From contig NZ_JBQMUL010000002.1 of the NCBI RefSeq assembly GCF_052173275.1, positions 970,108 to 994,107 on the forward strand: DNA of 24,000 nucleotides, written 5' to 3'. The DNA comes from Methylophilus sp. GTDB taxonomy: Bacteria > Pseudomonadota > Gammaproteobacteria > Burkholderiales > Methylophilaceae. The notes below the pieces were generated by a model. It saw only the letters and a program-made list of their open reading frames with translations. It was not told the DNA's origin and did no database searches. The position numbers and the translations under genes were made by a program. This document shows, in pieces, positions 530-22,810 of this stretch. Every line of letters begins with the position of its first letter. The stretch's first letter is position 1.

Positions 530-565
530 AAAAAAACGGCGACCTGGTTTGGTCGCCGTTTTTTA
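530..565. terminator. Bidirectional rho-independent terminator between convergent genes
   Basis: A-run (530-536), 9-bp GC-rich stem ACGGCGACC (536-544) / GGTCGCCGT (551-559), 6-nt loop, then a T-run (559-564). It sits between the stops of the + strand catalase-like gene and the - strand vWA gene. Confidence 0.8.
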
Positions 566-613
566 TTGATGGTGTTTGTCAGCTTGTTAATGGCCTATGC
601 GCCAAGCCAACCC

Positions 614-1582: not shown

Positions 1583-2142
1583 GGCAACCCCTGTGGCAGG
1601 TTACTGATCTCCAGGCCAGACGGATCCTGGGGCACGGTCTTGATATGCCTGGGGATCACGCCATGCAGCAGGCTCAGGTTGAATTTGGCTGCCTGGTTGT
1701 GCGGGTCAAGCTTTAACGCCTGCTCATACGAAGCACGCGCCTGCAGATAATCGAACTTTGCCTGTTCCTGAATCGCACCGTCTGCCTCTACCAGGCGTTG
1801 CAAACCGGAGCGGAACAGGTGATTACCGATATTGAAATGGATCTGCGATTTCAGCAGGGGGTCAGGCTCGAACACTTGCTCATCCTGCTTTTTAGGTGCT
1901 TCCAGCAATTGCCCGAAATTCTGGCTGGCATGCTTGAAGTTACCGGTTTTCCCTTGCTGGTAAGCATCGGCAAATTTACGGTGGAAGGCAAACTGGTCAC
2001 CTTCCAGCACCTCGCCCCTTTGCAGAATGCTGTTGGCAGAGGCGATCTTATTCACCTGGAAACCTTCGTACACAGTGCCGACCAGCCCGACGAACAACAA
2101 TAGTCCCAGTACCTGGTTTTTGCGCGCTATATGGTTTTTCAT
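1579..2142 (-). CDS. TPR-like membrane-anchored protein, MxaK-like
   Basis: 187-aa ORF with an N-terminal TM helix (VLGLLLFVGLVGTV) and a TPR-like segment (ARASYEQALKLDPHNQAAKFNLSLL). It has ATGA-type 4-nt overlaps with both neighbours. Confidence 0.6.
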   Translation of the reverse strand: MKNHIARKNQVLGLLLFVGLVGTVYEGFQVNKIASANSILQRGEVLEGDQFAFHRKFADAYQQGKTGNFKHASQNFGQLLEAPKKQDEQVFEPDPLLKSQIHFNIGNHLFRSGLQRLVEADGAIQEQAKFDYLQARASYEQALKLDPHNQAAKFNLSLLHGVIPRHIKTVPQDPSGLEISNLPQGLP

Positions 2143-4078: not shown

Positions 4079-4136
4079 AATTGTATATTTCGCTCGGTTA
4101 ACTGGTGATCACTATTTGCTTTTCACGCTGTTTGGG

Positions 4137-5045: not shown

Positions 5046-5054
5046 TGGCTGGCT

Positions 5055-6104: not shown

Positions 6105-6120
6105 GAATCTTTCCTTTAAT

Positions 6121-6279
6121 AGAATGTTTCAAAAATGTAACAGAATGTAACTAGTCCACAATCCTCCAGTTTCGAGAACTTTGCTGGTCCAGTTAAATAT
6201 GCGATATAGTGAAGGTTACATAGTCCAGATTGCGACTAAAGAAAAGGGATTTTTTCCCGCTGTTGCGTATATTCAGCGG
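6121..6279. promoter_or_regulatory. Divergent control region with several short repeat families (candidate MocR operator/promoters)
   Basis: A(G/A)AATGT occurs at 6121, 6132 and 6142 with about 10-11 bp period, including AATGTAAC twice (6134, 6144). T(A/G)GTCCA occurs at 6152, 6185 and 6221 (33 and 36 bp apart). The inverted repeat CCGCTG-N11-CAGCGG (6257-6279) lies just upstream of the GGAG RBS (6285-6288) of the MocR gene. Confidence 0.35.
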
Positions 6280-6297
6280 CGGATGGAGACGTGAAAA

Positions 6298-7764: not shown

Positions 7765-7843
7765 CGCAAGCGCTAAGAGAATTAGTTTTTATTGCTTTTT
7801 GCAGCCAGACACCAATAAAGCAGGGGATAAAGCCTGGAGCGCT

Positions 7844-9292
7844 TTATGCCTGCTGTGGCTGCGCGTCGGATGACAACATCTCGCAGGCTATCGCCCCCAC
7901 ATCACGCACCGCCTGCTCAATGGCTAATGTCCACAGATGGCTGAAATTCAGCCGGATATAGTGGGTGAGGTCTTTTTTGAGGGAAAAAATAGTGCCGGGT
8001 GCGACCGTGATGCCGTTGTCGATAGCGGCCCTGTACAACGTAAGTGCATCCAGCGCTGGTGGCAGTTTGACCCAGATCACGTAGCCGCCTTTGGGTTCTG
8101 AAAGCTGCGTGCCCGCCGGGAAGCTTTGCTCGATCACGTTGCGCATCAACACATAATTCGAGCGCAAGGTATGCCGCAACTGCTTGAGGTGTTGTTCAAA
8201 ACTGTCGCGCTGCATAAATTTGGCAATCGCGATCTGCGGTGCAGAAGTCAGCGACAGGCTGTTGAGGAACATCAGTTGTTCCACTTGCTGGCGATAGCGC
8301 CCGGCGCTGGTCCAGCCAACGCGATAGCCAGGCGCCAGTGATTTGGAGAACGACGAGCAATGCAGCACCATGCCGGTTTTATCATAGGCTTTGGCCGGTA
8401 ACGGCGGCTCATCACTGAAATACAGCTCGCTGTAGACATCGTCTTCAATCAGCGGGATTTCCTGCTCGGCCAAAAACGCCACTAAGGCCTGCTTTTTAGC
8501 GTCCGGCATCACAAAACCAAGCGGGTTCTGAAAGTTGCTGGTGAGGATCACGGCCGCAATACGCACCTGGCCGGTCATGACACGCAAGGCTTGCAGGTCT
8601 ATGCCGGATTCCGGGTCAGTCGCCACTTCAGCCACTTTCATGCCCAGGCGTTCCACCGTGTGCGCCAGTGCGTAATAGCCGGGCGACTCCATGGCTATGA
8701 TATCGCCAGCCTTGGCCACGGCCTGCAAACACAGCGTGATCGCTTCAGTTGCGCCATGCGTGATGACAATATCGTCCGGCGAGACATCCATGCCATTGGC
8801 CAAATAGCGGCGCGCGATCTGCTGGCGCAGCATTTCGTTGCCGGGCGGCAGGTCACTCAGCACGCCCCACTCGCCCTGGTCATCCGTCAGGGCTTTTTCA
8901 TACTGGTGTATCTTTCTGAGCGGGAACAGTTGCGGGTCGGGGAAAGGCGAGCCTAGCGGCACGGTGCCGAATTCGCGGATGGATTTAAGGGTAGTCAGCA
9001 CCAGCCGGCTGGCATCCACTTCAGATAGATTGATATCTTTGGCAAGTGGCGAGGCGTGTTTTTGCTGCAGGCGTTTGCGCAGCGTGACATAGTAACCGGA
9101 TTGCGGATGGCTGCTGATCACGCCTTCCTGCTCCAGCAACAGATAGCTGCGCAACACGGTGCTGATGCTGAGGCCATATTTCTGGCTGGCCTGGCGTACC
9201 GAGAAAATCCTGTCTCCTGGCCGTAAAACGCCTTCATCGATCATTGCGCGTATGCGGGCGGCAAACGAGACATAAAGCTTCATGGTGGCCAA
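7844..9292 (-). CDS. MocR/GabR-type transcriptional regulator (second copy, divergent sequence)
   Basis: 482 aa. It has a GntR HTH (SVRQASQKYGLSISTVLRSYLLLEQEGVI) and an aminotransferase-like domain with SFSKSLAPGYRVGW (PLP Lys retained). Confidence 0.85.
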   Translation of the reverse strand: MATMKLYVSFAARIRAMIDEGVLRPGDRIFSVRQASQKYGLSISTVLRSYLLLEQEGVISSHPQSGYYVTLRKRLQQKHASPLAKDINLSEVDASRLVLTTLKSIREFGTVPLGSPFPDPQLFPLRKIHQYEKALTDDQGEWGVLSDLPPGNEMLRQQIARRYLANGMDVSPDDIVITHGATEAITLCLQAVAKAGDIIAMESPGYYALAHTVERLGMKVAEVATDPESGIDLQALRVMTGQVRIAAVILTSNFQNPLGFVMPDAKKQALVAFLAEQEIPLIEDDVYSELYFSDEPPLPAKAYDKTGMVLHCSSFSKSLAPGYRVGWTSAGRYRQQVEQLMFLNSLSLTSAPQIAIAKFMQRDSFEQHLKQLRHTLRSNYVLMRNVIEQSFPAGTQLSEPKGGYVIWVKLPPALDALTLYRAAIDNGITVAPGTIFSLKKDLTHYIRLNFSHLWTLAIEQAVRDVGAIACEMLSSDAQPQQA

Positions 9293-9319
9293 GCGGGGAG
9301 GAAAATTCAGGTGTTTTCC

Positions 9320-9349
9320 ATTATACGTCAGCCTGGCCCCGGCTGTCGT
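9320..9349 (-). promoter_or_regulatory. Candidate sigma70 promoter for the second MocR gene
   Basis: The minus strand reads ACGACA - 18 nt - TATAAT (perfect -10 at 9325..9320), about 28 nt upstream of the ATG at 9292. Confidence 0.4.
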
Positions 9350-9373
9350 TCTACGAATAGCGCGTCGTGCTGG

Positions 9374-9685
9374 CTAGGCGGTTTTCAAGACCTGCGAAAT
9401 TTCTTCGCCGCTGGTGGTGAGGGCAGCCACCAGACGGTCTTTTTGCATAGACACGTCAACAAGTTGTTGCTCATTGAGTGCCGTCATCAACCGTTGCACC
9501 GTACTCATGCGGATATCCAGCCGCTTGCAGATCACGGCGAGCGAAACCTGCGCGCGGCCTTCAGCATGCTCGGCATGCAGCAGCTCCAGGATACTCAGCA
9601 TCAGCACTGTGCTCCTGTCCAGCGGGGCATAGTCGGCAAACGCTTCTTCTACCGGCGCGTTCAAATAATCGTGATCAAGCAGCAC
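9374..9685 (-). CDS. Small winged-helix (MarR/IclR-N-like) DNA-binding protein
   Basis: 103 aa with an HTH-like segment (VSLAVICKRLDIRMSTVQRLMTALNEQQLV). The GTG start lies inside the last codons of the upstream oxidoreductase gene (11-nt overlap), implying co-translation. Confidence 0.5.
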   Translation of the reverse strand: MLLDHDYLNAPVEEAFADYAPLDRSTVLMLSILELLHAEHAEGRAQVSLAVICKRLDIRMSTVQRLMTALNEQQLVDVSMQKDRLVAALTTSGEEISQVLKTA

Positions 9686-11999
9686 GGGCCACCTCTGGTG
9701 CAGTGGTTTTCTCGAGGATCACCGGGATAGACTTAGAGGTAGGTGTGCGCGACCCATCGGCCACGCTTTCCAGCGGCACCAGGTTATTGGTTTCCGGGTA
9801 ATAACCACTCAGGCAGCCTTGCGGAATATCGTAAGACACCACCAGGAACTTGTCCGCGCGACGGGTGATGCCATCCTGCCAGACGCTGACCAGATTGACC
9901 CAGTCACCGGCCTCCAGCCCCATGCGCGCAATATCCACCGGGTTCATAAACACCACGCGACGCTGGCCGAACACGCCACGATAGCGGTCATCCATGCCAT
10001 AAATGGTGGTGTTGTACTGGTCGTGCGAGCGGGTGGTCATCAGCACAAACAGGCGGTCGCCATATTGCTCACGTGCCAGGTGGATAGGCGACTGGCTGGG
10101 GATCGCCTGCACCGTGAACTCAGCCTTGCCGGAAGGTGTTTTCCAGATACGCTCACTGGAAGGCACCGGCATGCGGAAGCCGCCCGGCGTCTTGATACGT
10201 TCGTTGTAATCCCTGAACGCCACCGGCATGGTGCGCTCTATCATGTCGCGGATCTTGCTGTAATCCTTGATCGCTTCCAGCCACGGCGTTTTGCTGTGCT
10301 TGAGCGTGGCATGCGCCAGGCGCGCCACAATGGCAGGCTCTGAAAGCAGATTCGGCGAAGCAGGTTTGTTGATGCCATAAGACACATGCACCATGCTCAT
10401 GGAGTCTTCAACGGTCACGCCTTGCGGCCCGGTTTCCTGGGTATCGATCTCAGTACGGCCCAGGCATGGCAGAATCAGGGCATCCTTGCCATGTACCAGA
10501 TGGCTGCGATTGAGCTTGGTGGTCACATGCGCGGTCAGGTCGCATTTGCGCATGCCTTCCCAGGTGCGGTCGGTGTCGGGTGTCGCAATCGAAAAATTGC
10601 CCCCCAGCCCAAAGAATACTTTGCCTTTACCATCTATCATGGCCTGGATGGCCGCTACGGCATCATAGCCAGGTGTCTTGGGCACCTTGATATCAAACAC
10701 GCGCTCCAGGCTTTCGAGAAACTCCAGTGGCATCTTTTCATAAATACCCACGGTGCGGTTGCCCTGCACATTGCTATGGCCACGCACCGGGCACAGGCCA
10801 GCGCCTTCCTTGCCAATATTGCCACGCAACAGCATCAGGTTGACCAGTGTTTTAATCGTGGCGACACCATGTTTGTGCTGGGTAATGCCCATGCCCCAGG
10901 TCGCGATCACGCGGTCACCAGTGGCATAAATACGCGCAAGTTCTTCGATCTGCGCCAAAGGCACGCCCGACTCTTCTACGATCAAATCCCAGTTTTCCTG
11001 GCGCGCATCGGCCGCAATCGCCTCAAAGTTGTTGGTGTGCTGCTCGATAAACTCCAGGTCGACCACGCGCTCGGCACCCTGCTTGATCGCTTCGTCATCC
11101 CACTGGATGATGAACTTGATCATGCCTTTGACCAGCGCCAGGTCACCTCCCAGTGTCGGCTGGATAAACAGGTCGCTGATCTTGCTGCCTTTGAAAGAAA
11201 GCATATCAAACGGGCTTTGCGGGTCGGCAAAGCGCTCCAGGCCACGCTCTTTCAAGGGGTTGATCGCCACAATGCGCGCGCCGCGTTTAGCGGCTTCGCG
11301 CAGCTCACCCAGCATGCGCGGATGGTTGGTGGCAGGGTTCTGGCCGAAGATCAGTATGGTGTCGGCATGCTCAAAATCATGCAGAGTCACCGAACCCTTG
11401 CCTATGCCCACGGTAGGCGGCAAGGCCATGCTGGTGGATTCGTGGCAAAGGTTGGAACAATCGGGGAAATTATTGGTGCCGAATTCACGCACGAATAACT
11501 GGTACAGAAAAGCCGCTTCATTCGCCGCACGGCCAGAAGTGTAAAAAATCGCCTCATTCGGGTCGGCCAGGCCGTTCAGGTGTGTCGCCAGCAGCTCAAA
11601 CGCACCATCCCAGGAGACTTCTTCATACTTGTCCGTCACCGCGTTATAGCGCATAGGGTGCGTCAAACGGCCTTCGTTCTCCAGGTCAAAATCGCTCCAG
11701 CCCATCAACTCGGTCACCGTGTGCTTGGCAAAAAACGCAGGCGGCGTGCGTTTGGCAGTCGCTTCAGCAGCCACGGCCTTGACGCCGTTTTCACAAAACT
11801 CAAACGTAGACGTGTGTTCCTTGTCCGGCCAAGCACAGCCCGGGCAGTCAAAGCCATCCGGCTGGTTTTGTGCAAGCAAAGTCATGATCCCCTTCACCGG
11901 GATCTTCTGCAGCGCGAGTTGCGCAGCCACTTGCTTCAACGCACCCCAACCGGCGGCTGGGTGGTGATAAGGCTTGATGGAGGCTTTTTGTTGCGACAT
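9675..11999 (-). CDS. FdhF/YdeP-family molybdopterin oxidoreductase (formate-dehydrogenase-alpha-like)
   Basis: 774 aa. It has an N-terminal Cys cluster (FDCPGCAWPD...FEFCENG), an active-site-like CSNLCHESTS and typical MopB-family blocks. There is a good RBS (TAGGAAAAATG). Confidence 0.8.
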   Translation of the reverse strand: MSQQKASIKPYHHPAAGWGALKQVAAQLALQKIPVKGIMTLLAQNQPDGFDCPGCAWPDKEHTSTFEFCENGVKAVAAEATAKRTPPAFFAKHTVTELMGWSDFDLENEGRLTHPMRYNAVTDKYEEVSWDGAFELLATHLNGLADPNEAIFYTSGRAANEAAFLYQLFVREFGTNNFPDCSNLCHESTSMALPPTVGIGKGSVTLHDFEHADTILIFGQNPATNHPRMLGELREAAKRGARIVAINPLKERGLERFADPQSPFDMLSFKGSKISDLFIQPTLGGDLALVKGMIKFIIQWDDEAIKQGAERVVDLEFIEQHTNNFEAIAADARQENWDLIVEESGVPLAQIEELARIYATGDRVIATWGMGITQHKHGVATIKTLVNLMLLRGNIGKEGAGLCPVRGHSNVQGNRTVGIYEKMPLEFLESLERVFDIKVPKTPGYDAVAAIQAMIDGKGKVFFGLGGNFSIATPDTDRTWEGMRKCDLTAHVTTKLNRSHLVHGKDALILPCLGRTEIDTQETGPQGVTVEDSMSMVHVSYGINKPASPNLLSEPAIVARLAHATLKHSKTPWLEAIKDYSKIRDMIERTMPVAFRDYNERIKTPGGFRMPVPSSERIWKTPSGKAEFTVQAIPSQSPIHLAREQYGDRLFVLMTTRSHDQYNTTIYGMDDRYRGVFGQRRVVFMNPVDIARMGLEAGDWVNLVSVWQDGITRRADKFLVVSYDIPQGCLSGYYPETNNLVPLESVADGSRTPTSKSIPVILEKTTAPEVARAA

Positions 12000-12147
12000 T
12001 TTTCCTACTTGCTTGCGAATAAAGGCTGGGGGCTGGTTAAAGCAGAACAGCGAATAACTACGGATTGAGGATTACAGCCATGCTAAGACAGCCAGCGCAA
12101 GGAAAACAGATACAAAAGCGGGGAATTTTTAGAGTACAGTTAGCAGG

Positions 12148-12265
12148 TGATCTGAGGGAGATCAATAAGCAACATATTGATATTTAAGAAAAATCAAATA
12201 CTACCGAAAACAATTTAATATCAATGAACTTAATTTATTGTGGGAAGATAGTAATAGATCAATAT
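12148..12265. promoter_or_regulatory. AT-rich control region with a palindrome and an ATCAAT hexamer array
   Basis: The palindrome TGATCT-N5-AGATCA spans 12148-12164. Exact ATCAAT occurs on the + strand at 12161, 12220 and 12258, and on the - strand as ATTGAT at 12177-12182. A variant ATCAAATA is at 12193. All lie within about 105 bp upstream of the GGDEF-EAL gene. Confidence 0.3.
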
Positions 12266-12283
12266 TAAATATTCATTCATTTT

Positions 12284-14359
12284 ATGGAAAATATTAAAAA
12301 ACAAAATATTGAAAGCAACCAATACATCCAGACCCTGATCGATAATTTTCCATTCATGGTCTGGCTCAAGGATGCGAACAGCCGCATCCTGGTGGCGAAT
12401 ACTGCCTATGCCAATATGGTGGGCGTCTCTTCAAGTGCCGAACTGATAGGCAAGACCGATTTTGATTTTTTCCCGCCCGATCTGGCGCAGGAATATGTCG
12501 ATGGCGACAAAAAAGCCATGCTCAGCACCTCACCCAGCCCAGTCACCGTGCCGATTAAAAATGCAGAAGGCGAGTATTACTGGATAGAGTCTTATAAATC
12601 TGCCGTGGTGGTCAATGGCAAAGTGGTGGGTTCGCTGGGTTACGCCAGGGATGTCACCGAAGATATCCAGAAAGAGCACGAGTACAAATCCATCGTAGAA
12701 AACTCGTCCAATTGCATCGCCAAGTACAACAAGGACTGCGAGCGCATCTTCCTCAACAATGCCAACTCTTCATTTTATGAAGTGAATGCCAGCAGCCTGC
12801 TAGGCAAAACGCCCTCGCAATATCCAGGTGGCGCATCCGCGATAGCGCTGGAGCAAAGCATACGTGAAGTGTTCCAAAGCGGCGAGAACCAGCATGTCGC
12901 CTTCAGGCTCACCACAAAAAACGGCAAGCACAAGATCATGGATACCGTGCTAACGCCGGAATTCAACGCCATCCACGAAGTCATCGCCGTCATCGCCATC
13001 GGGCAGGATATGACGCAGTCGTATGAAAACCTGGACCGCATCAATAATCTGGCCTATTTTGATTCCATCACCAAACTGCCCAACCGCATCTCGTTGCTTG
13101 AGGTACTGGATCACTGCATCAAACAATCGCAGCAGTCAGCATCCTCATTTGCGTTTCTAATGCTGGACCTGGATGGTTTCAAAGCCGTCAACGATCTACT
13201 CGGGCACGCAGAAGGTGACTTGCTGCTCTACGAAATGGCGAGACGCATTGAACGGGCAGTGCGCCCTACCGATACCGTTGCCCGCCTGGGTGGTGACGAA
13301 TTTGCCATCGTGCTGACAGAAGTCAAAGACCCTAAAAATGCCGGCATCGTCGCCAAAAAAATCTTGGAGGCGATCAAACAACCTATCCTGATCCGCGGCA
13401 CCGAACTGTTTATTTCGGCCAGCATAGGCCTGGTCATTTGCCCCGACCACAGCAGTGACGTCAGTGATATTGTGAAATATTCCGATATCGCCATGTACAA
13501 AGCCAAAAAGCACGGCCGCAACAACTACCAGTTTTATTCGTCCGACCTATCGCAAACCACCATTGAACGCATAGACATCGAACGCTCGTTACGCACCGCC
13601 CTGCAAAACGATGAGTTCCTGCTGCACTACCAGCCGCAGGTCAATTTAGAGACCAACAAAATCGTCGGCGTAGAAGCCCTGCTCAGATGGCACCGCAACC
13701 ACAACGAAATGATCCCTCCCAACCGGTTTATCGGCATCGCAGAAGATTCAGGCTTCATTATCGAGATCGGCGAGTGGATCATGCAAACGGCGTTTAAAGA
13801 TGCCGTCAGATGGAACACGGGCCGCACAGACCCTATCAGCGTCGCCATCAACTTGTCCAGCCGCCAGTTTATCCATAACAACCTGCTCAACTCCATCAAG
13901 CACCTGTTAAAGAAAACTCACTGCAACCCGGCATGGATCACCCTGGAAATCACCGAAAGCCTGCTCCTAAGCGACAGCCTGCATATCCGAAAAACCCTGA
14001 AAAGCCTGGATAGCCTGGGCTTCAGAATCTCCCTCGATGACTTCGGCACCGGCTATTCAGCGCTCAGTTATTTAAACAAATTCCCCGTCAGTGAAATCAA
14101 AATTGATCAGTCATTTGTGCAAGGCATTGCAGATAACAACGACCACAGGCTGATTGTGCAGGCGATTATTTCAATGGCGAAAAGCTTGGGTAAAGAACTG
14201 GTGGCAGAAGGGGTGGAGACGGCAGAACAGGCTAAGTATCTACTAGACTGTGACTGCAAAGTGGTGCAAGGCTTTTACTTTAGTAGACCTAAGCCGTTTG
14301 ATGAAATTGATATGAAAGCATCGTGGGAAACTGCTATTAAAGAAAATAAATCTAGTTAG
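12284..14359 (+). CDS. PAS-PAS-GGDEF-EAL c-di-GMP signalling protein
   Basis: 691 aa with two PAS-like regions. It has an intact GGDEF (RLGGDEF) with an RxxD I-site 5 residues upstream (RPTD). The EAL-domain motifs are intact (EALLRW, DDFGTGYS, EIKIDQSF, AEGVET, QGFYFSRP). Confidence 0.9.
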   Translation: MENIKKQNIESNQYIQTLIDNFPFMVWLKDANSRILVANTAYANMVGVSSSAELIGKTDFDFFPPDLAQEYVDGDKKAMLSTSPSPVTVPIKNAEGEYYWIESYKSAVVVNGKVVGSLGYARDVTEDIQKEHEYKSIVENSSNCIAKYNKDCERIFLNNANSSFYEVNASSLLGKTPSQYPGGASAIALEQSIREVFQSGENQHVAFRLTTKNGKHKIMDTVLTPEFNAIHEVIAVIAIGQDMTQSYENLDRINNLAYFDSITKLPNRISLLEVLDHCIKQSQQSASSFAFLMLDLDGFKAVNDLLGHAEGDLLLYEMARRIERAVRPTDTVARLGGDEFAIVLTEVKDPKNAGIVAKKILEAIKQPILIRGTELFISASIGLVICPDHSSDVSDIVKYSDIAMYKAKKHGRNNYQFYSSDLSQTTIERIDIERSLRTALQNDEFLLHYQPQVNLETNKIVGVEALLRWHRNHNEMIPPNRFIGIAEDSGFIIEIGEWIMQTAFKDAVRWNTGRTDPISVAINLSSRQFIHNNLLNSIKHLLKKTHCNPAWITLEITESLLLSDSLHIRKTLKSLDSLGFRISLDDFGTGYSALSYLNKFPVSEIKIDQSFVQGIADNNDHRLIVQAIISMAKSLGKELVAEGVETAEQAKYLLDCDCKVVQGFYFSRPKPFDEIDMKASWETAIKENKSS

Positions 14360-14380
14360 CATTAATGGAAATTCGCTCTT

Positions 14381-15310
14381 TTATTTCTTACCTTCATAAG
14401 CATCGACAATAAAAGCCTTAGCCTTTTCTAAATCGTCAAAGGTTGAAATAGTAAATTCAATGTCACCTGTACCCCAATGTCCTATTTCGCGAACATCACG
14501 AAAATTGTCAGGGAAATTTGAATATGCTGAAGGATTAAGATGTAAAAACAGAAGAATCTTGTTTTTCTGTAACACTACTGTGGCGAAATTCTTAATGCGC
14601 TTGAAAGCAGAATAAAGCTTGAGCTCTTTCTTTTCAATATCATCACCCAAGGAAAAAATATACTCTTCAAGTGAAGATAACACCTGCATCAATTCAGGTG
14701 ACAAATCGACGATCCATTCCGCATAACTCTTATCACCGGTCTTAGTAAGCTTGGTTCCAGCTAAAACTTTGGCTGTTTTTGGGCTAATCTTATTGCTTTG
14801 ACCTGCCGAGGTTGAGTTCACCAATTCAAACAACAGCAAATCATCTTCAAATAATCTGTAGCGGATTAGCTGTATTTCGCGATTCATTTGCTGAACAGCA
14901 TGAGCATCATACTTCGTAAAATCTCCAGCAATACAGACTAAACGTGGTTGTGACCAATCGATGGTATCAGAAACTAACTGACCATACTTTTTCATGACCA
15001 AGAGTTCAAACTCAGCTTTATGATCCATTAACCAATCTAAATAAAATAAACCTTGGTTAATGACATTTTCGCCCGTCGAACGCTTGTATTCCAAAATCAC
15101 TGGACTACCATTTTCATCAATGCCTAAGCTATCAATGCGTCCAGCGTGGGTTTTGCCAGTTGAATATTCTGTTGCTAGAAATCTGACCCCTAATAATGTT
15201 TCTAGATTTGTTTCTATTAATGTTTGCAATGGCTTTTCAAGGTCCGAGGCAGACCCTGTGAGCTCCGTCGCGGCTTGATTCTTTATTTTGAAAAGTTTTA
15301 TATCGCTCAT
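14381..15310 (-). CDS. NucS/DUF91-like PD-(D/E)xK nuclease-fold protein with DUF5655-like C-terminal domain
   Basis: 309 aa. The nuclease-fold motif set is E48 ... GRID60 ... E74-Y-K76 ... Q86xxxY90 (GRIDSLGIDENGSPVILEYKRSTGENVINQGLFY). The C-terminal block KLYSAFKRIKNFATVVLQKNKILLFLHL...VREIGHWGTGDIEFTI matches my memory of DUF5655. It is the last gene of the hsd operon, 13 nt after the hsdM stop. Confidence 0.6.
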   Translation of the reverse strand: MSDIKLFKIKNQAATELTGSASDLEKPLQTLIETNLETLLGVRFLATEYSTGKTHAGRIDSLGIDENGSPVILEYKRSTGENVINQGLFYLDWLMDHKAEFELLVMKKYGQLVSDTIDWSQPRLVCIAGDFTKYDAHAVQQMNREIQLIRYRLFEDDLLLFELVNSTSAGQSNKISPKTAKVLAGTKLTKTGDKSYAEWIVDLSPELMQVLSSLEEYIFSLGDDIEKKELKLYSAFKRIKNFATVVLQKNKILLFLHLNPSAYSNFPDNFRDVREIGHWGTGDIEFTISTFDDLEKAKAFIVDAYEGKK

Positions 15311-15323
15311 GCTTAACCTGTTG

Positions 15324-16931
15324 TTAAGGTATCAAGGGTAAACCCAGTTCTTTCAAAAATTCGTTATGGCGTGTTTTGGCTTCATTAACTTTTTCTTCCG
15401 CAGCCAATAAATCTGCATTCACTTTCAGCAAGTCAATTGCCTGCTCGGCAACAGAGGTGCTGATGTACCGCGAGATATTCAGGTTGTAATCATTTTTCTC
15501 AATTTCTGCCATCGGAACACGGCGCGAGTAACGCTCTATTTCATTGCGATATTGATAGGTGCTAACAATCTGGTCGATCTGATTTTCCAGCAAGCGGTTT
15601 TGGCGTTTGCCCTTTTCAAAATGCTCGGCGGCGTTAATAAACAACACATCATCTGGCTTTTTGCAGCGCTTAAGCACCAAAATACACACTGGGATGCCCG
15701 TGGAATAAAACAGGTTGGCAGGCAAGCCTATCACGGTATCAATATGCCCATCTTTAAGCAGCTTAGTGCGTATGCGCTCTTCTGCGCCGCCACGGAATAA
15801 CACACCGTGCGGCAAAATAATCGCCATCACGCCACTCTCACTCAAAAAGTGAAAGCCATGCAGTAAAAAGGCAAAGTCTGCTGCAGATTTTGGCGCAAGG
15901 CCATAATTGGCAAATCTAAAATCTTTGCTCATTTCCTCGGTGGGTTCCCAGCGCAAACTAAAAGGTGGGTTTGCCACAATCGCATCAAACTCTACCTTAT
16001 TAGCTGGGTTGCGCTCATTGAGCATGGGCCATTCGTTATCTAGCGTGTCACCGTGAAAAATCTCAAACTCGGTATCTTTCACACCATGCAACAGCATGTT
16101 CATTCGCGCCAGGTTATAGGTGGTGATGTTTTTTTCTTGCCCGTAAAACTTGCCAATCCCATGTTCGCCCAACTGATGGCGCACATTCAGCAACAGCGAG
16201 CCAGAGCCACAGGCAAAATCCAGCACGCGTTCTATTTTGGTTTTTTTGCCTAGTGTTGGATCTTGGCTATCCAACGTCACAATGCGAGAGAGTATGGTCG
16301 AGATTTGTTGCGGGGTATAAAACTCCCCAGCCTTTTTACCAGAGCCAGCGGCAAATTGCCCAATCAAATACTCATAAGCATCGCCCAACACATCGCTACT
16401 GGTAGAAAAGTGTGCGATACCTTCGGCAATTTTAGTGATAATCGTGCACAGCTTGGCATTGCGGTCGGTGTGTGTTTTGCCCAGCTTTTCTGAGTTGAGA
16501 TTAATCTCAGAAAACAAGCCTTGGAAGGTGCTGTTGAATGACTCATTTTCAATGTAATCAAAACCCTTATCTAATGTTTCTAGCAATACTGTGTCTTGTA
16601 GCCTTGCCTGCTCAGCAATGTTGCGCCATAGATACTGCGGCTGAATCACATAATGCAGCTTACGGCGCATCTGCTTTTCAAACTCTAAATAGTCTTCTAA
16701 ATTCAGCTCATACCACTCGGTTAAAGGTGACCTTTTGTCATCTTTATCAAGTGTTGGATAGTCAGAACCTAGTTCCTTTTTTGCTGCAACCTCGTAGTTA
16801 TCTGAGAGGTAACGTAAGAACAAAAACGAGAGCATGTAGTCACGGAAATCGTCCGCGTTCATCGCGCCGCGCAATTGGTCAGCAATGCCCCATAGGGTTT
16901 TACCGAGTTGATTTAATTCTTCTTGAGTCAC
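15324..16931 (-). CDS. hsdM: Type I restriction-modification system, DNA methyltransferase subunit M (N6-adenine)
   Basis: 535 aa with an HsdM_N-like N-terminus (LWGIADQLRG), AdoMet motif DFACGSGSLLL and catalytic NPPF (IVANPPFSLRW). The GTG start lies 3 nt after the upstream stop. Confidence 0.95.
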   Translation of the reverse strand: MTQEELNQLGKTLWGIADQLRGAMNADDFRDYMLSFLFLRYLSDNYEVAAKKELGSDYPTLDKDDKRSPLTEWYELNLEDYLEFEKQMRRKLHYVIQPQYLWRNIAEQARLQDTVLLETLDKGFDYIENESFNSTFQGLFSEINLNSEKLGKTHTDRNAKLCTIITKIAEGIAHFSTSSDVLGDAYEYLIGQFAAGSGKKAGEFYTPQQISTILSRIVTLDSQDPTLGKKTKIERVLDFACGSGSLLLNVRHQLGEHGIGKFYGQEKNITTYNLARMNMLLHGVKDTEFEIFHGDTLDNEWPMLNERNPANKVEFDAIVANPPFSLRWEPTEEMSKDFRFANYGLAPKSAADFAFLLHGFHFLSESGVMAIILPHGVLFRGGAEERIRTKLLKDGHIDTVIGLPANLFYSTGIPVCILVLKRCKKPDDVLFINAAEHFEKGKRQNRLLENQIDQIVSTYQYRNEIERYSRRVPMAEIEKNDYNLNISRYISTSVAEQAIDLLKVNADLLAAEEKVNEAKTRHNEFLKELGLPLIP

Positions 16932-16934
16932 TGG

Positions 16935-18014
16935 TTATTCCGCATGTAAAACAAACTTATATTTTTCTATTAGCCTATCAAATATCTCTATAAAAATAGA
17001 TTTATTATCTGGCTGCATAATATCAGATTGATGGTAATAGATTTTCTGATGAGATAGGGTGTTGACGATAGTTGCTACTCTATCTTTATCCGCTATACCA
17101 ATTTGCTCCAAGACATAGGAAAACTGACCGACCCCCAAAAAAGAAGCAATATTCTCAAGTGCTTGTCGTAGCAATGCAAAATGATAGGTATAAAGCTGTC
17201 CATCTTTTGCTTGTTGCAATAACTTCATGAGTTGTAAATGATACAAAAGCACATCATTTCTTGTGCTTTCTAAAGAGAGCTCATCAGCATTACGACTCAA
17301 AATATACATCTGATACTTATTGTTGTTACGCTCTTTGAACTGACTAGCTTTTTCACCTTTCGTGATCCAATCACTTAAAATCGAAAACAAGCCTAAGTGA
17401 TGGGTTGTAATAATTATTTTTCTATTTTTGAAGTGCTTATCTATTAACTCAAACAATGTAAAAGCTGTAACGAAAATATTATGGTCATCTAAACTTGAAA
17501 CAGGGTCGTCTATAAAGAAATGTTTTGATTGCTTATCTGCCCAGCCTTCAACCTCAAACAATGCTAAAAATAAACACCAAACAAAAATACGCTCCTCACC
17601 TCTTGAGATCTTAATTGGTGTCTCACTATCCCCTTTTACATAGAAAGTGACCGCATCAATACCAAGTTCGGGATTTTCATTTGTATTAAAGTAAAAGTCA
17701 TATCTTGGCTGATATGGTGCTAATTTCGCATTTACATCCTCTTCAGTGATTGAGGAATGTAGTCTATTTAAACTACTTCTCTTGACCTCAAGCTTAATAT
17801 TCTGTTCGTTGTTTTCATTATCATTATCCCAAACGAAGAGGTCCTCGCTAAAGGCATTGTAATAAACCCCTTCATGTTCGCCACTATCAGCATTTTTGCT
17901 AACATTTTTATAGGCTACAGATAATCTTGTTTTCCCCGTTGCGTTAAAGGCATAAACAAGAATGATATTTTTTTCTGATTGATAAAGCTGTGTGGCAACT
18001 TGCTCTAAATTCAT
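16935..18014 (-). CDS. PrrC-like AAA_13/ABC-type ATPase, putative anticodon nuclease
   Basis: 359 aa. The motifs are Walker A A22FNATGKT29, ABC-signature-like S137RGE, Walker B FFIDD170, D-loop SSLD176, H-loop TTHH206, and a C-terminal R283-x3-E287 ... H322 triad-like pattern. It sits between hsdS and hsdM with an ATGA overlap to hsdS. Confidence 0.6.
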   Translation of the reverse strand: MNLEQVATQLYQSEKNIILVYAFNATGKTRLSVAYKNVSKNADSGEHEGVYYNAFSEDLFVWDNDNENNEQNIKLEVKRSSLNRLHSSITEEDVNAKLAPYQPRYDFYFNTNENPELGIDAVTFYVKGDSETPIKISRGEERIFVWCLFLALFEVEGWADKQSKHFFIDDPVSSLDDHNIFVTAFTLFELIDKHFKNRKIIITTHHLGLFSILSDWITKGEKASQFKERNNNKYQMYILSRNADELSLESTRNDVLLYHLQLMKLLQQAKDGQLYTYHFALLRQALENIASFLGVGQFSYVLEQIGIADKDRVATIVNTLSHQKIYYHQSDIMQPDNKSIFIEIFDRLIEKYKFVLHAE

Positions 18015-19261
18015 TGTTCAATGGCCTGCGAATCAATTGCCTTTGGGAAAAGCTGCTGCATTAAGCCTTTTTTGTGCTCTCTTAAGGATTCTAGTTTTTT
18101 AATTTGACTAGTGACTGCATCATCAATTGAGGTTAAGCAGTTAGCAATTCTTTTTTGCTCAGCATAGTCAGGCAACGGTAACAATTTCTCAGAAAATTGA
18201 AAAAAGGAAACCATTTTCCCATCTCTTATTCCCTCTATATTTTTGTTAAGGTCACGTATAAATAAATCTGTTTTGAAGTAATATTTAAAAAACAAGTCAA
18301 ATACTTCTATTTTCTTACGCAAAATAATATACGCGGGACTACAAATACCTTTGTAATTTGAGTATTCAATACCTCCCTGAAAAGACCTGAGACTTATAAT
18401 GAAGTCACCAACCTCAACTATTTTATAACTTTCAATACTTTGTTCTGTTGCAATGACTTTGTAATCAATTAGCTCCCGAGGAATTGCCCCATGTTCTTGG
18501 CTGATAGCTAAAATGGGTAAGTCTGAATTGTGTTTTTTGTTGCTTATTGGTTCGAAAATTTTATCTCCGTTCAAAAACGCCCACTCTCCATCTTCCTCAA
18601 ACTCAGAAAAACGAAGTTTGGGGACGGTTTTACCTTCAGCGGGGAAAAGTTGTTGCATCATGCCTTTTTTGTATTTTTTTAAGGCTTCAACTTTTTGGTT
18701 TTGTACGGTGATTAAATCATCAAGTGATGACAGGCAATCGGCAATTTTTTGTTGTTCTTTTGGTTCTTTGGGAACGAAAAATTTATATTTCAAAAATTTA
18801 CTGCCGTTTATTGAGTTGATTGTTGCACCTAAGTCAGCATCAACTTGGTCTTGATACGAATCTGTTTGAAACAACTGATAGACAAATTTTGCTATTGGCG
18901 AGCGAAAAACTGTCATGAATGCGCCATGTGTGCATAGCGACATTCCATCTGGTATTAACGCATTTTTTCCAATCAGTGCTTTTGAGCCATTCCTAACACA
19001 AATCAAAATATCATTTGGTTTTGCTAAGTTAGCGCCTTTAATGCTCGGCGTCACATAAACGTTATCATCAAGCGAGATTTGACCATTTTGGACGTTTGAT
19101 GATCTTAGAACTAACAAGCCACTCTCACGAACATCTTCAGGGCTATAAGTTAAACCTGAAACAAGTTTACCTAATTGATTCAGTTCTTGAGGTTTCCATT
19201 CACTGACATCTCTAAACTCAGGAAACCGCAATTTAGGCACTAATTTAATTTTCTCACTCAT
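18011..19261 (-). CDS. hsdS: Type I restriction-modification system, specificity subunit S
   Basis: 416 aa with the classic two-half architecture. PKLRF(P/S)EF..EW opens each target-recognition domain. Each half closes with a conserved helix, QQKIADCLSSLDDLI...KKGMMQQLFP in the first and QKRIANCLTSIDDAV...KKGLMQQLFP in the second. Confidence 0.95.
   Translation of the reverse strand: MSEKIKLVPKLRFPEFRDVSEWKPQELNQLGKLVSGLTYSPEDVRESGLLVLRSSNVQNGQISLDDNVYVTPSIKGANLAKPNDILICVRNGSKALIGKNALIPDGMSLCTHGAFMTVFRSPIAKFVYQLFQTDSYQDQVDADLGATINSINGSKFLKYKFFVPKEPKEQQKIADCLSSLDDLITVQNQKVEALKKYKKGMMQQLFPAEGKTVPKLRFSEFEEDGEWAFLNGDKIFEPISNKKHNSDLPILAISQEHGAIPRELIDYKVIATEQSIESYKIVEVGDFIISLRSFQGGIEYSNYKGICSPAYIILRKKIEVFDLFFKYYFKTDLFIRDLNKNIEGIRDGKMVSFFQFSEKLLPLPDYAEQKRIANCLTSIDDAVTSQIKKLESLREHKKGLMQQLFPKAIDSQAIEQ
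18045..18101. repeat. HsdS conserved-region repeat, copy 1 (C-terminal helix coding)
   Basis: About 80% identical by hand alignment to 18642-18698, which lies 597 bp (199 codons) away (GGGAAAAGyTGyTGCAT..GCCTTTTTTGT..TTAAGG). Confidence 0.8.
18642..18698. repeat. HsdS conserved-region repeat, copy 2 (central helix coding)
   Basis: This is the partner of 18045-18101. Internal direct repeats are typical of hsdS genes and are substrates for TRD shuffling. Confidence 0.8.
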
Positions 19262-22200
19262 ATGCCGCCAACCCCGAAATCTCTCTGCCTTGCGCTTGTT
19301 TTTTGAGCAGTGGCACCATATCTTCCATCAAAGCGAGCTCTTTTTGTGTACGAGCCTTCCAGCCAAGATCTTGCTCGGTAAATAGTTCACTGAGTTTGTC
19401 ACCGTCAAAAATCATGCGGTTTAAAATACCATTCACAAAGGCTTTGAGTTTTTCGAGTGTCAAGCCATGTTTCTTCGCTACTTCTGCCAACGCTTTGTTA
19501 TTCTTCTCGGCTTTAAAACGTTGTAAATCTTGGCCTATTTGTTGGTCTGTCATCACCTCACCGACTGGCAGGCTGTTGATAAATTCGATGATGGCGTCTT
19601 GCTCGTCCATCATATTAGAGTGAGATCGGATATAGTCCACCAACTGCTGGCGGGTCATTTTTTGTTTGTTGCTGTCCACCTGCGTCGATTTAGCAATCAG
19701 GCTCATGATGTAGTCGTAATCAATCACCGCCGAGGCAAACAGCACCAGTTCTAAATCAAGTTGTTCCAGATTAGCTTCGTCGACATAGCTCGCTCTTTCT
19801 TGCTCCACTTTGTTCGGGTTGGTGACTTCTTGCTGAGTTTTGAGTTGTTGGGCGGTTTCAATATAGCGGCCTCTAAAACTGCGCAAGGTGACTTCGGGCA
19901 TGAGTTGCTCGATAGTGTGTTTGTGCTCTTCTGTGAGGTCAGTGTATTGGTCGAGCTGAGTTTTAAAGCGCTGCACCTCTTTAAAGTGGTTGATAAAGCC
20001 CATTTTGGCGTTATTGCCTTTGAGGTTGCTCACTTGCTCTGGCGCACAGTCTAGGCCTTGTTTTTCCATAAATTCACCCAACTTGGTCACAGCGCTCTGC
20101 AATTTTTCGATCACTTTAGGCGCAGGGTCTACCAGCCAGATTTCACGCGCGCTGGCTTCGTCTTGTTTGCCAGAAAATAATTTAATGGCCGCATCGACTT
20201 CGGTCTCTTGGCCTCTAAAGTCGAGAATATTGCCCCATGGTTTGGTGTCGTTAAGTACGCGGTTGGTGCGTGAAAACGCTTGAATCAGGCCATGATTTTT
20301 GAGGTTTTTATCCACATACAGTGTGTTGAGATATTTTGAGTCAAAGCCTGTGAGCAGCATATCCACCACAATCACAATATCGATTTTGTTTTTGTGCGGG
20401 TAATTGGCGTATTGGTGGTCTTTAATGCGCTTTTGCACATCCTGATAGTAGGCATCAAACTCGGTAATGGTGTGGTTAGTGCCAAACTGTTGGTTATAGG
20501 CCACCATGATTGCAATAAGCGCGGCTTTTTTCTCTTCGGGCGCTTGTTGGTTGTCTTGCTGCTCAGTGGGTAAGTCTTCTTGTAGCTGTTGCACCTCAAC
20601 ATTGCCTTGAGCGGGTGGTGAAAACACACAGGCAATATTGAGCGCTTTAAAGTTTGCATCTTCGGCTTGTTTTTGCGCCTGCATTTGCGCAAACACTTTG
20701 AAATACTCAATGGCGCTGTTGATGGACGAAGTCGCCAAAATGGCATTAAAGCGACGATGGTTCGTCGCGGCATCGTGCTTTGCAAAGATTTCGTTAATCA
20801 CGGCTTGCGGGATGGGTACCTCGCTCTTTTTGGGCTTTGTATCTTCGCCTTTGTTTTTGCCAAAATAATCAATATGAAAGCTGAGGACATTTTTGTCTTC
20901 AATAGCGTTGGTAATGGTGTAAGCGTGTAGCTCGCTCTCAAACAAATCTTGTGTGGTTTTAAACGAGCCGACATTGCCATCAACCTGCACAAAGCTGGAG
21001 TTGGCGTCAAAAATAGGGGTGCCGGTAAAGCCAAACATTTGCGCTTTGGGGAAAAACTCTTTAATAGCTTTGTGGTTTTCACCAAACTGCGAGCGGTGGC
21101 ATTCGTCAAAAATAAAGGCGACGCGTTTGTCGCGTAATGGCTCTAAGCGCTCTTTATAAGTGAGCTTGCCCTTTTGCACATTCACTTGATTACGCTTGCT
21201 ATTTTCATCCAGCGCCAAGCCTAATTTTTGGATGGTGGTGACAATCACCTTATCCGCATAATCTTCGGAAAGCAGGCGGCGCACCAAGGTCTCGGTGTTG
21301 GTGTTTTCTTCTACACAGCCTTCTTGAAAGCGGTTAAATTCTTCGCGTGTTTGGCGGTCGAGGTCTTTGCGGTCAACCACAAAAAGGCATTTTTCAATGT
21401 CTGGGTTATCTTTGAGCAGCGTAGAGGCTTTAAATGAGGTGAGCGTTTTGCCACTGCCTGTGGTGTGCCAGATATAGCCATTCCCACGATTTTGGTGGAT
21501 GCACTCGACGATCTTTCTAACCGCATAAATTTGATATGGGCGCATAACCATGAGTTTTTGCTCACTGGCGACCAGTACCATATAACGGCTTATCATTTGC
21601 CCCAAGGTACATTTGACTAAGAAGACATTTGCAAAGTCATGCAAGTGCGAGATTTTATGGTTTTGCTCATCTGCTAATTGATAAATAGGCAAAAAGCGTT
21701 CATCGGCATTAAAACTGAAATGCTCGTTTTTATTGTTCGCAAAATAAAGCGTATTGCTTTGGTTGCTGACAATAAACAACTGCATAAAACACAGCAAGGT
21801 ATTGGCGTAACCATTGCCTGGGTCATTTTTGTAATGGACGATTTGTTCGATGGCTTTGCGTGGGATGACTTCAAAAGTTTTAAGCTCGATTTGCACGGTA
21901 GGAATACCGTTAATCAGCAAAATTACATCATAACGATGGTGACTATTGTGCGTATTGCACCGTAGTTGATTGATGACTTCAAAGTCGTTTTTGCACCAAT
22001 CTTTGGTATTGACCAGTGTGTAATGCAGCGGCGTGCCGTCTTCACGCTGAAAATAGTTGGTTTCACGTAACCTTTTTGCTGCTTGATAGACATCAGGGGT
22101 GATAATTTCATCACGCAGCCGTGCAAACTCAGCATTGGTTAAGTTAACACGATTGAGTGCTTCAAATTTTTGACGAAAATTGGCTTCAAGAGACTCGCGG

Positions 22201-22286
22201 TCACGAATATCCGCACGATAAGCGTACTTAAGCTCTATGAGCTTTTGAATCAAGTCTTTTTCGATTTGACTTTCAGTCGCCAACAT
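19254..22286 (-). CDS. hsdR: Type I restriction-modification system, restriction/translocase subunit R (EcoR124-like, type IC-like)
   Basis: 1010 aa. It has an N-terminal PD-(D/E)xK motif (RYD120VILLINGIPTVQIE134LK136), helicase motif I HTTGSGKT and motif II FDECH. Its stop overlaps the hsdS start by 8 nt. Confidence 0.95.
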   Translation of the reverse strand: MLATESQIEKDLIQKLIELKYAYRADIRDRESLEANFRQKFEALNRVNLTNAEFARLRDEIITPDVYQAAKRLRETNYFQREDGTPLHYTLVNTKDWCKNDFEVINQLRCNTHNSHHRYDVILLINGIPTVQIELKTFEVIPRKAIEQIVHYKNDPGNGYANTLLCFMQLFIVSNQSNTLYFANNKNEHFSFNADERFLPIYQLADEQNHKISHLHDFANVFLVKCTLGQMISRYMVLVASEQKLMVMRPYQIYAVRKIVECIHQNRGNGYIWHTTGSGKTLTSFKASTLLKDNPDIEKCLFVVDRKDLDRQTREEFNRFQEGCVEENTNTETLVRRLLSEDYADKVIVTTIQKLGLALDENSKRNQVNVQKGKLTYKERLEPLRDKRVAFIFDECHRSQFGENHKAIKEFFPKAQMFGFTGTPIFDANSSFVQVDGNVGSFKTTQDLFESELHAYTITNAIEDKNVLSFHIDYFGKNKGEDTKPKKSEVPIPQAVINEIFAKHDAATNHRRFNAILATSSINSAIEYFKVFAQMQAQKQAEDANFKALNIACVFSPPAQGNVEVQQLQEDLPTEQQDNQQAPEEKKAALIAIMVAYNQQFGTNHTITEFDAYYQDVQKRIKDHQYANYPHKNKIDIVIVVDMLLTGFDSKYLNTLYVDKNLKNHGLIQAFSRTNRVLNDTKPWGNILDFRGQETEVDAAIKLFSGKQDEASAREIWLVDPAPKVIEKLQSAVTKLGEFMEKQGLDCAPEQVSNLKGNNAKMGFINHFKEVQRFKTQLDQYTDLTEEHKHTIEQLMPEVTLRSFRGRYIETAQQLKTQQEVTNPNKVEQERASYVDEANLEQLDLELVLFASAVIDYDYIMSLIAKSTQVDSNKQKMTRQQLVDYIRSHSNMMDEQDAIIEFINSLPVGEVMTDQQIGQDLQRFKAEKNNKALAEVAKKHGLTLEKLKAFVNGILNRMIFDGDKLSELFTEQDLGWKARTQKELALMEDMVPLLKKQAQGREISGLAAYE

Positions 22287-22331
22287 TTGAGACCCTATTT
22301 AGGAAATTTATAAGCAGCGCTAATGATAAAG

Positions 22332-22354
22332 GGTATTGGAAAAAGGCCAATACC
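22332..22354 (-). terminator. Hairpin downstream of the thioesterase gene (weak terminator candidate)
   Basis: GGTATTGG (22332-22339) - 7-nt loop - CCAATACC (22347-22354). On the minus strand it is followed only by a weak CTTTAT tract. It separates the thioesterase gene from the hsdR start. Confidence 0.35.
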
Positions 22355-22363
22355 AATTGGTAA

Positions 22364-22810
22364 TTATTTATACAGAATAAAAACCCCTTGAAACTTAGAT
22401 GTTGCTTTTGATTCACTGATAATCTGTGCAGTGACTACAATTCTCGCCCTGCCCTTTTCCTCATAACTCTTTTTAAAACTATCCCAGTCATCCGCTGATT
22501 GAAAACTCGCCACACATTCAAAATCTGTTTTCACAGGCAATAGATAGTCGATCTCCTGGCGCTTGATCACCAGGTTACCTTTTAAGCCTGCTTGCTCGAT
22601 TTTTGACTGCACTAATGACCAGGCCGTGGTAATTGAAATGGCAGCAATGCTGCCACCAAATACGATATCGAGATGGTTTTTGTTCAGGGCATAATCGCCA
22701 TGCACGGTGATCTGATTTTCATCAATCTTGGTGATTTTTATCCCTAAGTTTTTGGTTTGCGGGATGAGTTTAAACAGAGTGTTTTGAAAGTTTTCTTCTA
22801 GCTGGCTCAT
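22364..22810 (-). CDS. Hotdog-fold thioesterase, YiiD C-terminal-domain-like
   Basis: 148 aa. The pattern NLGIKITKIDENQITVHGDYALNKNHLDIVFGGSIAAI... matches PaaI/YiiD_C-type thioesterases as I recall them. The RBS AGGA lies about 9-12 nt upstream. Confidence 0.55.
   Translation of the reverse strand: MSQLEENFQNTLFKLIPQTKNLGIKITKIDENQITVHGDYALNKNHLDIVFGGSIAAISITTAWSLVQSKIEQAGLKGNLVIKRQEIDYLLPVKTDFECVASFQSADDWDSFKKSYEEKGRARIVVTAQIISESKATSKFQGVFILYK

Follow-up and report, generated by a model that had tools for sequence, protein, structure and literature searches.

Five co-oriented genes in a low-GC island

The 24,000-nucleotide stretch of Methylophilus sp. analysed here (the window; NCBI RefSeq assembly GCF_052173275.1, contig NZ_JBQMUL010000002.1, positions 970,108 to 994,107 of the forward strand) contains a block of five same-strand genes in which a type I restriction-modification (RM) enzyme is combined with a homologue of the anticodon nuclease PrrC and with a further nuclease-type gene. 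The block had been picked out from the letters of the window by a model (referred to as the original prediction), and the listing of open reading frames (ORFs) confirmed all five on the minus strand in the positions reported. Read along that strand, they are hsdR (19254..22286; 1010 aa), encoding the restriction subunit of an EcoR124 (type IC) enzyme; hsdS (18011..19261; 416 aa), encoding a specificity subunit with two target-recognition domains (TRDs); prrC (16935..18014; 359 aa), encoding an anticodon-nuclease homologue with an ABC-type nucleoside triphosphatase (NTPase) N-domain and a C-terminal RNase domain; hsdM (15324..16931; 535 aa, GTG start), encoding the N6-adenine DNA methyltransferase subunit; and a last gene (14381..15310; 309 aa), which matches the PADLOC model PDC-S18 and is referred to as S18. 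The S18 product consists of a PD-(D/E)xK nuclease domain (residues ~1–165), a linker, and a DUF5655 domain (residues ~195–309).

The ORF coordinates bore out the tight junctions that had been claimed between these genes. The hsdR and hsdS genes overlap by 8 nt (19254–19261), hsdS and prrC overlap by 4 nt with the prrC start on the hsdS stop (ATGA, 18011–18014), and the GTG start of hsdM lies 3 nt past the prrC stop (gap at 16932–16934). The hsdM/S18 junction is a 13-nt gap (15311..15323, minus strand) that reads CAACAGGTTAAGC and holds a weak AGG ribosome-binding motif.

The GC content of the block is 35–47% vs. 52–58% in its flanks, and the GC profile, together with synteny breaks and alternative cargos in related genomes, delimits a low-GC variable defence island at 14379..22362. 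This island is bordered by a PAS-GGDEF-EAL gene (12284–14359, plus strand, convergent) and a YiiD_C thioesterase gene (22364–22810). No tRNA genes, flanking repeats or Rfam structured RNAs marking the island were found around the block, and a search for the whole block at near-identity in Escherichia coli genomes gave no match.

An EcoR124-type enzyme with an embedded PrrC homologue

The HsdR, HsdS and HsdM labels of the original prediction were upheld by Pfam, PADLOC and TIGR matches. HsdR carried the Pfam domains HSDR_N, SWI2_SNF2/ResIII, T1R_D3-like and EcoR124_C, reached 1050 bits with PADLOC REase_I, and scored above the cut-off of TIGR00348; this EcoR124_C-bearing domain set points to the type IC kind. 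HsdM matched Pfam HsdM_N and N6_Mtase (E=2e-101) and scored above the TIGR00497 cut-off, while HsdS contained two Pfam Methylase_S stretches and matched PADLOC Specificity_I (E=3e-104). The hsdS gene also holds a 116-nt direct repeat (18045–18160 and 18642–18757; 72% identity, 597 nt apart), and the two copies correspond to the conserved regions, one central and one distal, between which recombination of type I specificity genes takes place. The enzyme as a whole is that of the EcoR124 (type IC) family, i.e., an HsdR with nuclease, SF2 motor and EcoR124-type C-domain, an HsdM, and a two-TRD HsdS with repeats.

The 359-aa protein matched the PADLOC PrrC profile over nearly its full length (E=1.2e-103; residues 2–356 on model positions 20–348 of 372), as well as Pfam AAA_13, and the PrrC-like label given earlier could be kept. 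In an alignment of 20 homologues, the NTPase motifs were invariant, i.e., N24 and the Walker A-like T26-G27-K28-T29, the degenerate ABC-signature-like S137-R138-G139-E140-E141, the Walker B residues D169-D170, and H205-H206 with the linchpin His. R283, E287 and H322 were likewise invariant, with an R-x3-E spacing and the His 35 residues further on. These three residues align with LRTILEK...LSH of a homologue from E. coli AR_0137, which is 35% identical to the window PrrC and whose motifs could be aligned with it. They are likened to the catalytic triad Arg320/Glu324/His356 of EcoPrrC, for which the NTPase motifs have been described as well (PMC3014915), by the described pattern and not by direct alignment. 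A PDB sequence search with PrrC gave no meaningful match.

The closest characterised counterpart is the EcoprrI/PrrC system of E. coli CT196, which likewise has HsdM, HsdS and an EcoR124-type HsdR, with a PrrC-family gene embedded immediately behind hsdS; ABC-type NTPase motifs occur in both PrrC proteins, and the window protein shows an Arg-x3-Glu...His pattern like that of the EcoPrrC triad. It differs in gene order (hsdM-hsdS-prrC-hsdR in CT196 vs. hsdR-hsdS-prrC-hsdM in the window) and in the length of its PrrC (396 aa vs. 359 aa), and unlike the CT196 PrrC, the window protein belongs to a subfamily common in Bacteroidota. The Campylobacter jejuni rlo loci offer a second likeness, with extra ORFs within hsd loci and an RloC protein that has the NTPase and nuclease triad of PrrC (PMC3014915). 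However, RloC is much longer (826 aa in Acinetobacter baylyi) and mostly unlinked to RM genes (PMC3014915), whereas the window protein fits the PrrC model; RloC was ruled out as its identity by length and by the PrrC profile match.

The hsdR-hsdS-prrC-hsdM order is the usual one

According to the original prediction, an operon that begins with hsdR and in which hsdM is split from hsdS is unusual. This was contradicted by 80 PrrC loci obtained by scanning metagenome contigs with the PrrC alignment and analysed by tblastn with the window proteins. All 49 loci long enough for the four genes had hsdR-hsdS-prrC-hsdM on one strand, and the truncated remainder was consistent with this order; wherever flanks existed (80/80 homologue loci), PrrC occupied the same position as in the window, where hsdS and hsdM of an EcoR124_C-type system flank it. 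The junction overlaps of these cassettes (–8, –11 and –4) resemble those of the window, and their HsdR and HsdM proteins are 63–68% (49 cassettes) and 70–78% identical to the window proteins, respectively. HsdS is just 25–35% identical to most homologues, as expected of variable TRDs. Some loci have further genes between hsdR and hsdS or between prrC and hsdM, and the nearest PrrC (92% identical) is encoded in an R-YhcG-S-PrrC-M locus.

The same order was found outside the metagenomic set. A distant search of E. coli genomes yielded only hsdM-level similarity, and pointed to the type IC locus of strain AR_0137 (L168, 1–17480), which contains hsdR, a TrlF/Ppl-like ATPase gene, a Schlafen-like (Schlafen/pAgo-associated-like) gene, hsdS, prrC (PADLOC E=5e-142), hsdM, and a 400-aa TniQ-like ORF. 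About 100 E. coli genomes match the AR_0137-type hsdM. Furthermore, a "PrrC system (HsdR, HsdS, PrrC, HsdM)" of Klebsiella quasipneumoniae, of a kind detected by DefenseFinder and PADLOC, has been cloned, with its genes listed in that order (PMC11555353). R-S-PrrC-M is thus the invariant architecture of this PrrC subfamily, and the CT196 order is just one of two arrangements. A relative in Methylophilus (L172) moreover has an EcoEI-type locus with the layout R-S-(ABC ATPase + partner)-M-S18, indicating that genes other than prrC, too, can be embedded so as to separate hsdM from hsdS.

What sets the window apart from the AR_0137 and metagenomic R-S-PrrC-M loci is the gene that follows hsdM. Of the PrrC cassettes, 40 extended 1 kb or more past hsdM, and none of these had S18 there (0/40); AR_0137 carries other embedded genes.

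S18 is a PD-(D/E)xK–DUF5655 protein of a large and conserved family

The 309-aa protein is a full-length member of the PADLOC family PDC-S18 (PDLC04946; E=3.9e-140, residues 1–307), and its earlier description as a NucS-like PD-(D/E)xK protein with DUF5655 agreed with Pfam matches to NucS_C (residues 27–99) and DUF5655 (residues 205–306). Residues D60, E74 and K76 (ID...ExK) were invariant in 100 homologues, suggesting that the nuclease site is intact. An AlphaFold model built from this 100-sequence alignment (predicted local distance difference test [pLDDT] 83, predicted template modelling score [pTM] 0.77) showed a disordered linker at residues 168–191; an earlier model from 20 close homologues reached a pLDDT of 59, and its structural matches were treated as weak. 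Foldseek searches with the modelled N-domain returned EndoMS/NucS (5gke, E=3e-5; 2vld) and the Shedu protein SduA (8ps5, E=4e-3; 8ti9), and also the FokI cleavage domain and HamA, while the modelled C-domain matched YjbR (2fki), a YdhG-like protein (9t2w) and SPO1766. A PDB sequence search with the S18 profile gave no meaningful match.

S18 thus shares the PD-(D/E)xK fold and the D...ExK motif of its N-domain with NucS/EndoMS and with SduA, but differs from both in its C-terminal DUF5655 of YjbR/YdhG-like fold, and lacks the NucS N-domain. Orthology with NucS was rejected on the absence of that domain and on the score with the NucS equivalog (28.8 vs. a cut-off of 216); the NucS_C match is itself marginal (24.6 bits vs. 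a cut-off of 24) and N-terminal, so that the two-domain architecture of NucS/EndoMS is not present. Membership of Shedu was rejected too, with no Shedu/DUF4263 model among the PADLOC hits and a likeness at the fold level only.

An exhaustive search with the C-domain revealed DUF5655 fused to a range of other proteins, i.e., GmrSD, TIR with HEAT repeats (P0476), four copies of Mrr_N (P0455), a Septu-like ABC ATPase (P0474), HSDR_N_2 (P0436), and HIRAN with NucS_C (P0445). Partners this diverse are typical of a sensor domain that immune proteins have in common, and we infer a shared role of DUF5655 in sensing or in nucleic-acid binding. One such fusion, in which DUF5655 forms the C-terminus of a 707-aa protein of the GmrSD type (type IV restriction), is encoded between hsdS and prrC of a PrrC locus (L102:7786–9909).

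The S18 family comprises at least 8000 matches (all E ≤ 0.001), and homologues 52–93% identical to the window protein occur in Proteobacteria, Planctomycetes, Verrucomicrobia, Acidobacteria, Bacteroidota and Firmicutes. Across the 100 aligned sequences, 66 residues were invariant, and the window protein is 100% identical to one from an NCBI metagenome-assembled genome. S18 homologues were also seen on three phage-labelled records. The phage-defence candidate (PDC) set to which the family belongs is explicitly one of untested candidates, assembled by "guilt by embedding" (Payne et al. 2024). Literature searches for PDC-S18 and DUF5655, together with the supplements of that study, returned nothing relevant on the S18 family. 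A COG3586 putative nuclease has been described with a type I system in Methanosarcina (PMC1189080), and may belong to the S18 family or to a related one.

A Methylophilus defence hotspot with changing cargo

The same site, running from YiiD_C through S18 to a GGDEF/EAL or GntR gene, was found in Methylophilus relatives with S18 proteins 78–93% identical to that of the window and with at least five other cargos. These cargos were an HsdR-like gene with an M/S fusion and PD-Lambda-3 (L161 and L175), three genes of which the last is a ResIII helicase (L171), the above-mentioned EcoEI-type R-S-ATPase-partner-M (L172), an MmeI-like enzyme with BrnT and T5orf172 (L164), and an EcoR124-type R-S-PrrC-M (L174). 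In all six relatives, synteny with the window breaks at the island. S18 was the constant last gene behind the six different cargos counted at this hotspot, sometimes with RhuM, thioredoxin or Fic genes after it.

DNA comparison placed the breaks at the boundaries of the S18 gene. The sister genome L161, which carries a different RM system, is homologous to window positions 1–7752, then only to 14379–15310 (i.e., S18, 84%), and again to 22363–22789. A cassette that lacks S18 (L166) is in turn homologous to window positions 15337–22288 (85–87%). These breakpoints indicate that two modules meet at the 13-nt gap between hsdM and S18. In L161, the 6.6 kb at window positions 7753–14378 are absent and S18 abuts the first GntR gene; this segment holds a second GntR-aminotransferase gene, a molybdopterin oxidoreductase gene, a 162-aa ORF and the PAS-GGDEF-EAL gene, and the GGDEF/EAL gene is present in L172, L174 and L175.

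We initially regarded the S18 junction as a one-off juxtaposition, a view that had to be softened since the same junction is kept in a second lineage. The stretch of L174 from hsdM across the 13-nt junction to S18 is collinear with the window at 78% nucleotide identity, and the L174 hsdR is 87% identical at the nucleotide level. The hsdS-prrC segment of L174 differs from that of the window, with a PrrC of the E. coli-like subfamily that is split by a frameshift (6200–7377), and has been exchanged between cassettes that match the window in hsdR and in hsdM-S18. Together, the shared junction and the differing hsdS-prrC segment indicate that the five-gene layout is older than both lineages and is a mosaic.

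The constancy of S18 beside cargo that changes among close relatives, and the homology breaks that fall exactly at its ends, might suggest that S18 is not an immune effector. It could instead be an island maintenance or recombination factor (e.g., a structure-specific nuclease aiding cassette exchange), or a repair nuclease that limits restriction self-damage. The mismatch-repair nuclease NucS/EndoMS is among its nearest structural relatives, but S18 is without the NucS N-terminal domain. Its slow sequence evolution is atypical of an immune gene, yet its DUF5655 domain recurs in fusions with classical immune effectors (TIR, GmrSD and the Septu-like ATPase). Furthermore, the island bears no such marks as an integrase, a tRNA gene or flanking repeats, and breaks at gene ends may just reflect faster decay of intergenic DNA. 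Taken together, we consider a non-immune role very unlikely, and retain S18 as a candidate defence nuclease.

S18 closes unrelated defence operons

The neighbourhood of S18 was examined in 80 genome loci. In 55 of 73 loci, a same-strand gene lay less than 150 nt upstream of S18, and the two nearest upstream genes mostly encoded Methylase_S, N6_Mtase/HsdM_N, ResIII/HSDR_N, or AAA_21/AAA_15 ATPases. A same-strand RM or BREX component was found near S18 in 48/80 loci. The recurrent layouts were R(EcoEI-type)-M-S-[variable]-S18, M-S-S18-R, type III Mod-Res-S18 and BrxL-S18, and the variable slot before S18 held Septu PtuA/PtuB, Schlafen-like, YhcG, HipA with HIRAN, or PD-Lambda-3 genes. The window gene, with its PDC-S18 profile match and its position directly behind type I RM genes, conforms to the candidate set, which was defined by single genes within or beside BREX, DISARM or type I RM systems; the family itself was seen at or inside type I RM, type III RM and BREX loci. 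S18 was also encountered alone on several Staphylococcus plasmids, beside sugar-metabolism genes and 53% identical to the window protein (e.g., 9001–9918 of S. equorum plasmid pC2014-1, L169), which shows that the gene has been transferred across phyla and persists independently of RM genes.

The original prediction took a lack of enriched linkage of the two accessory genes to hsd genes or to each other as evidence against itself. Both accessory genes are strongly linked to hsd genes, but not to each other: next to the absence of S18 from the 40 PrrC cassettes, PrrC was encountered in just 1 of the 80 S18 loci (L029). Nor was the idea of an undescribed, dedicated five-gene system supported, as S18 is a catalogued candidate (PDC-S18), the PrrC cassette is known, and their mutual linkage is not enriched. 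At least two further loci (L174 and L029) nonetheless combine PrrC with S18, and the five-gene layout is a rare, recurring combination and not a dedicated, widely conserved system.

These neighbourhoods also bear on whether S18 could be a functional partner of the type I enzyme in the way that PrrC is, making the five genes one three-effector machine. S18 might then degrade restriction-made DNA ends, or inhibition of the RM complex might release or activate it. Consistent with such a partnership, S18 nearly always runs in the direction of the RM operon beside it, often with translational coupling (–4 overlaps). One clade (L067, L070, L072, L073 and L077; cf. the M-S-S18-R operon with 4-nt overlaps on a Cupriavidus plasmid) has it placed between hsdS and hsdR, and known defences are embedded between the RM genes and S18, as if it were a frame gene. 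However, its partners are mechanistically unrelated (type I enzymes of two families, type III, MmeI-like, BREX, and a ResIII-only cargo), and on the Staphylococcus plasmids there are none. Its high conservation and the hsdM-S18 junction kept in L174 would fit a partnership as well, but near-identical S18 alleles stand behind different systems at one locus, and the PrrC cassette is normally without S18. Integration of all five products into one machine is therefore deemed unlikely, and an S18 that works on its own is preferred.

Transcription of the block

All intergenic spaces in the block are too small for a terminator, and the minus-strand terminator-like matches within it (at 21135, 21133, 17270, 16344 and 14700) are weak hairpins inside coding sequence. 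In the scanned region as a whole, 17 terminator-like matches were found vs. 11.2 ± 3.4 in shuffled sequences, which is no meaningful excess. The original prediction had stated that no terminator lies inside and that the block is one transcription unit. With small gaps and weak hairpins within coding sequence, the absence of an internal terminator is a reasonable, though not proven, reading, and the gene spacing makes a single transcription unit plausible.

In classical type I loci, hsdMS and hsdR have separate promoters. This counts in support of an alternative in which the five genes form several transcription units, with internal promoters in the 3′ end of hsdR (for hsdS-prrC-hsdM) or in hsdM (for S18), allowing independent regulation as in those loci. 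A consensus scan did yield weak minus-strand promoter-like matches at 19527–19500 and 17329–17301, but promoter-like matches were fewer than in shuffled sequence (10 vs. 19.9 ± 5.5), and the scan carries little weight. A secondary joining of S18 to the cassette fits separate units, while gaps of at most 13 nt and two overlapping junctions do not. In addition, the clone of the four-gene Klebsiella system included just 300 nt of sequence ahead of hsdR (PMC11555353). Separate units are accordingly regarded as doubtful, and a single unit is retained below as the probable arrangement.

A candidate hsdR promoter (TTGGCC-16-TATCAT; 22323..22354, with the match at 22350–22323, minus strand) was identified by the consensus scan. 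It is overlapped by a hairpin at 22332–22354, directly after the YiiD_C gene, that could terminate the YiiD_C gene. The 74 nt at 22289–22362 showed no homology to L161 or L166 in the DNA comparison.

A probable composite of two defence modules

Our favoured reading, held with some but by no means full confidence, is that the block is a composite, i.e., two defence modules in one co-oriented and probably co-transcribed block at a Methylophilus defence hotspot, in which S18 is probably an autonomous nuclease. The first module (15324–22286) is the known PrrC/type IC cassette of four genes, with the order that is normal for it. By homology, HsdM2S would methylate host DNA and HsdR2M2S would cut unmodified incoming DNA, while the Hsd complex would keep PrrC latent (following the model in PMC3014915 and PMC12707154). 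A phage anti-restriction factor that disables the Hsd complex would then allow PrrC to cut the anticodon loop of a tRNA, by which the infection would be aborted; in E. coli, the tRNA cut by PrrC is tRNA-Lys (PMC3014915). The second module (14381–15310) would be a separate single-gene unit that joins a NucS/Shedu-type PD-(D/E)xK domain to DUF5655. S18 would act alone as a further DNA-targeting defence, and would ride at the 3′ end of any modification-based system that occupies the site. The layered defence put forward in the original prediction is reasonable in this respect and is supported, as is the tight, probably co-transcribed arrangement of the genes, but it is generic, since there are good descriptions of defences embedded in RM operons (Payne et al. 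2024).

A number of observations weigh against the composite. The degree of conservation of S18, which is unusual for a defence gene, its consistent place at the end of RM operons, and the hsdM-S18 junction shared by the window and L174 could all mean that S18 works jointly with the RM enzyme and not independently of it. Phage protection by S18 is a prediction only, PDC-S18 being a candidate family. Regarding the first module, the window PrrC and the E. coli-type homologue share just 35% identity. Co-transcription, finally, is read from gene spacing only.

More speculatively, and with little confidence on our part, S18 might be a general companion nuclease of methylation-based immunity, in which DUF5655 senses a signal shared by type I, type III, MmeI-like and BREX systems and switches the nuclease on. 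Such a signal may consist of stalled or inhibited complexes, restriction-made DNA ends, or an anti-restriction protein. If true, this would make S18 a widespread second "guardian" of RM systems, which in this operon stands beside PrrC.

Under the composite reading, the locus combines known parts in a new way without amounting to a new kind of system. For the locus itself little changes, as it is a further instance of PrrC/type IC with one catalogued candidate attached. The S18 family, on the other hand, is large, conserved, and terminal behind unrelated systems, which makes it a well-defined and inexpensive target for phage challenge, and S18 could serve as a handle for finding defence hotspots.

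Elsewhere in the window, positions 614–6104 (minus strand) hold a cluster of genes encoding a MoxR AAA+ ATPase, a DUF58 protein and VWA-domain (BatA-like) proteins, which the sister genomes L161 and L174 have kept as well.

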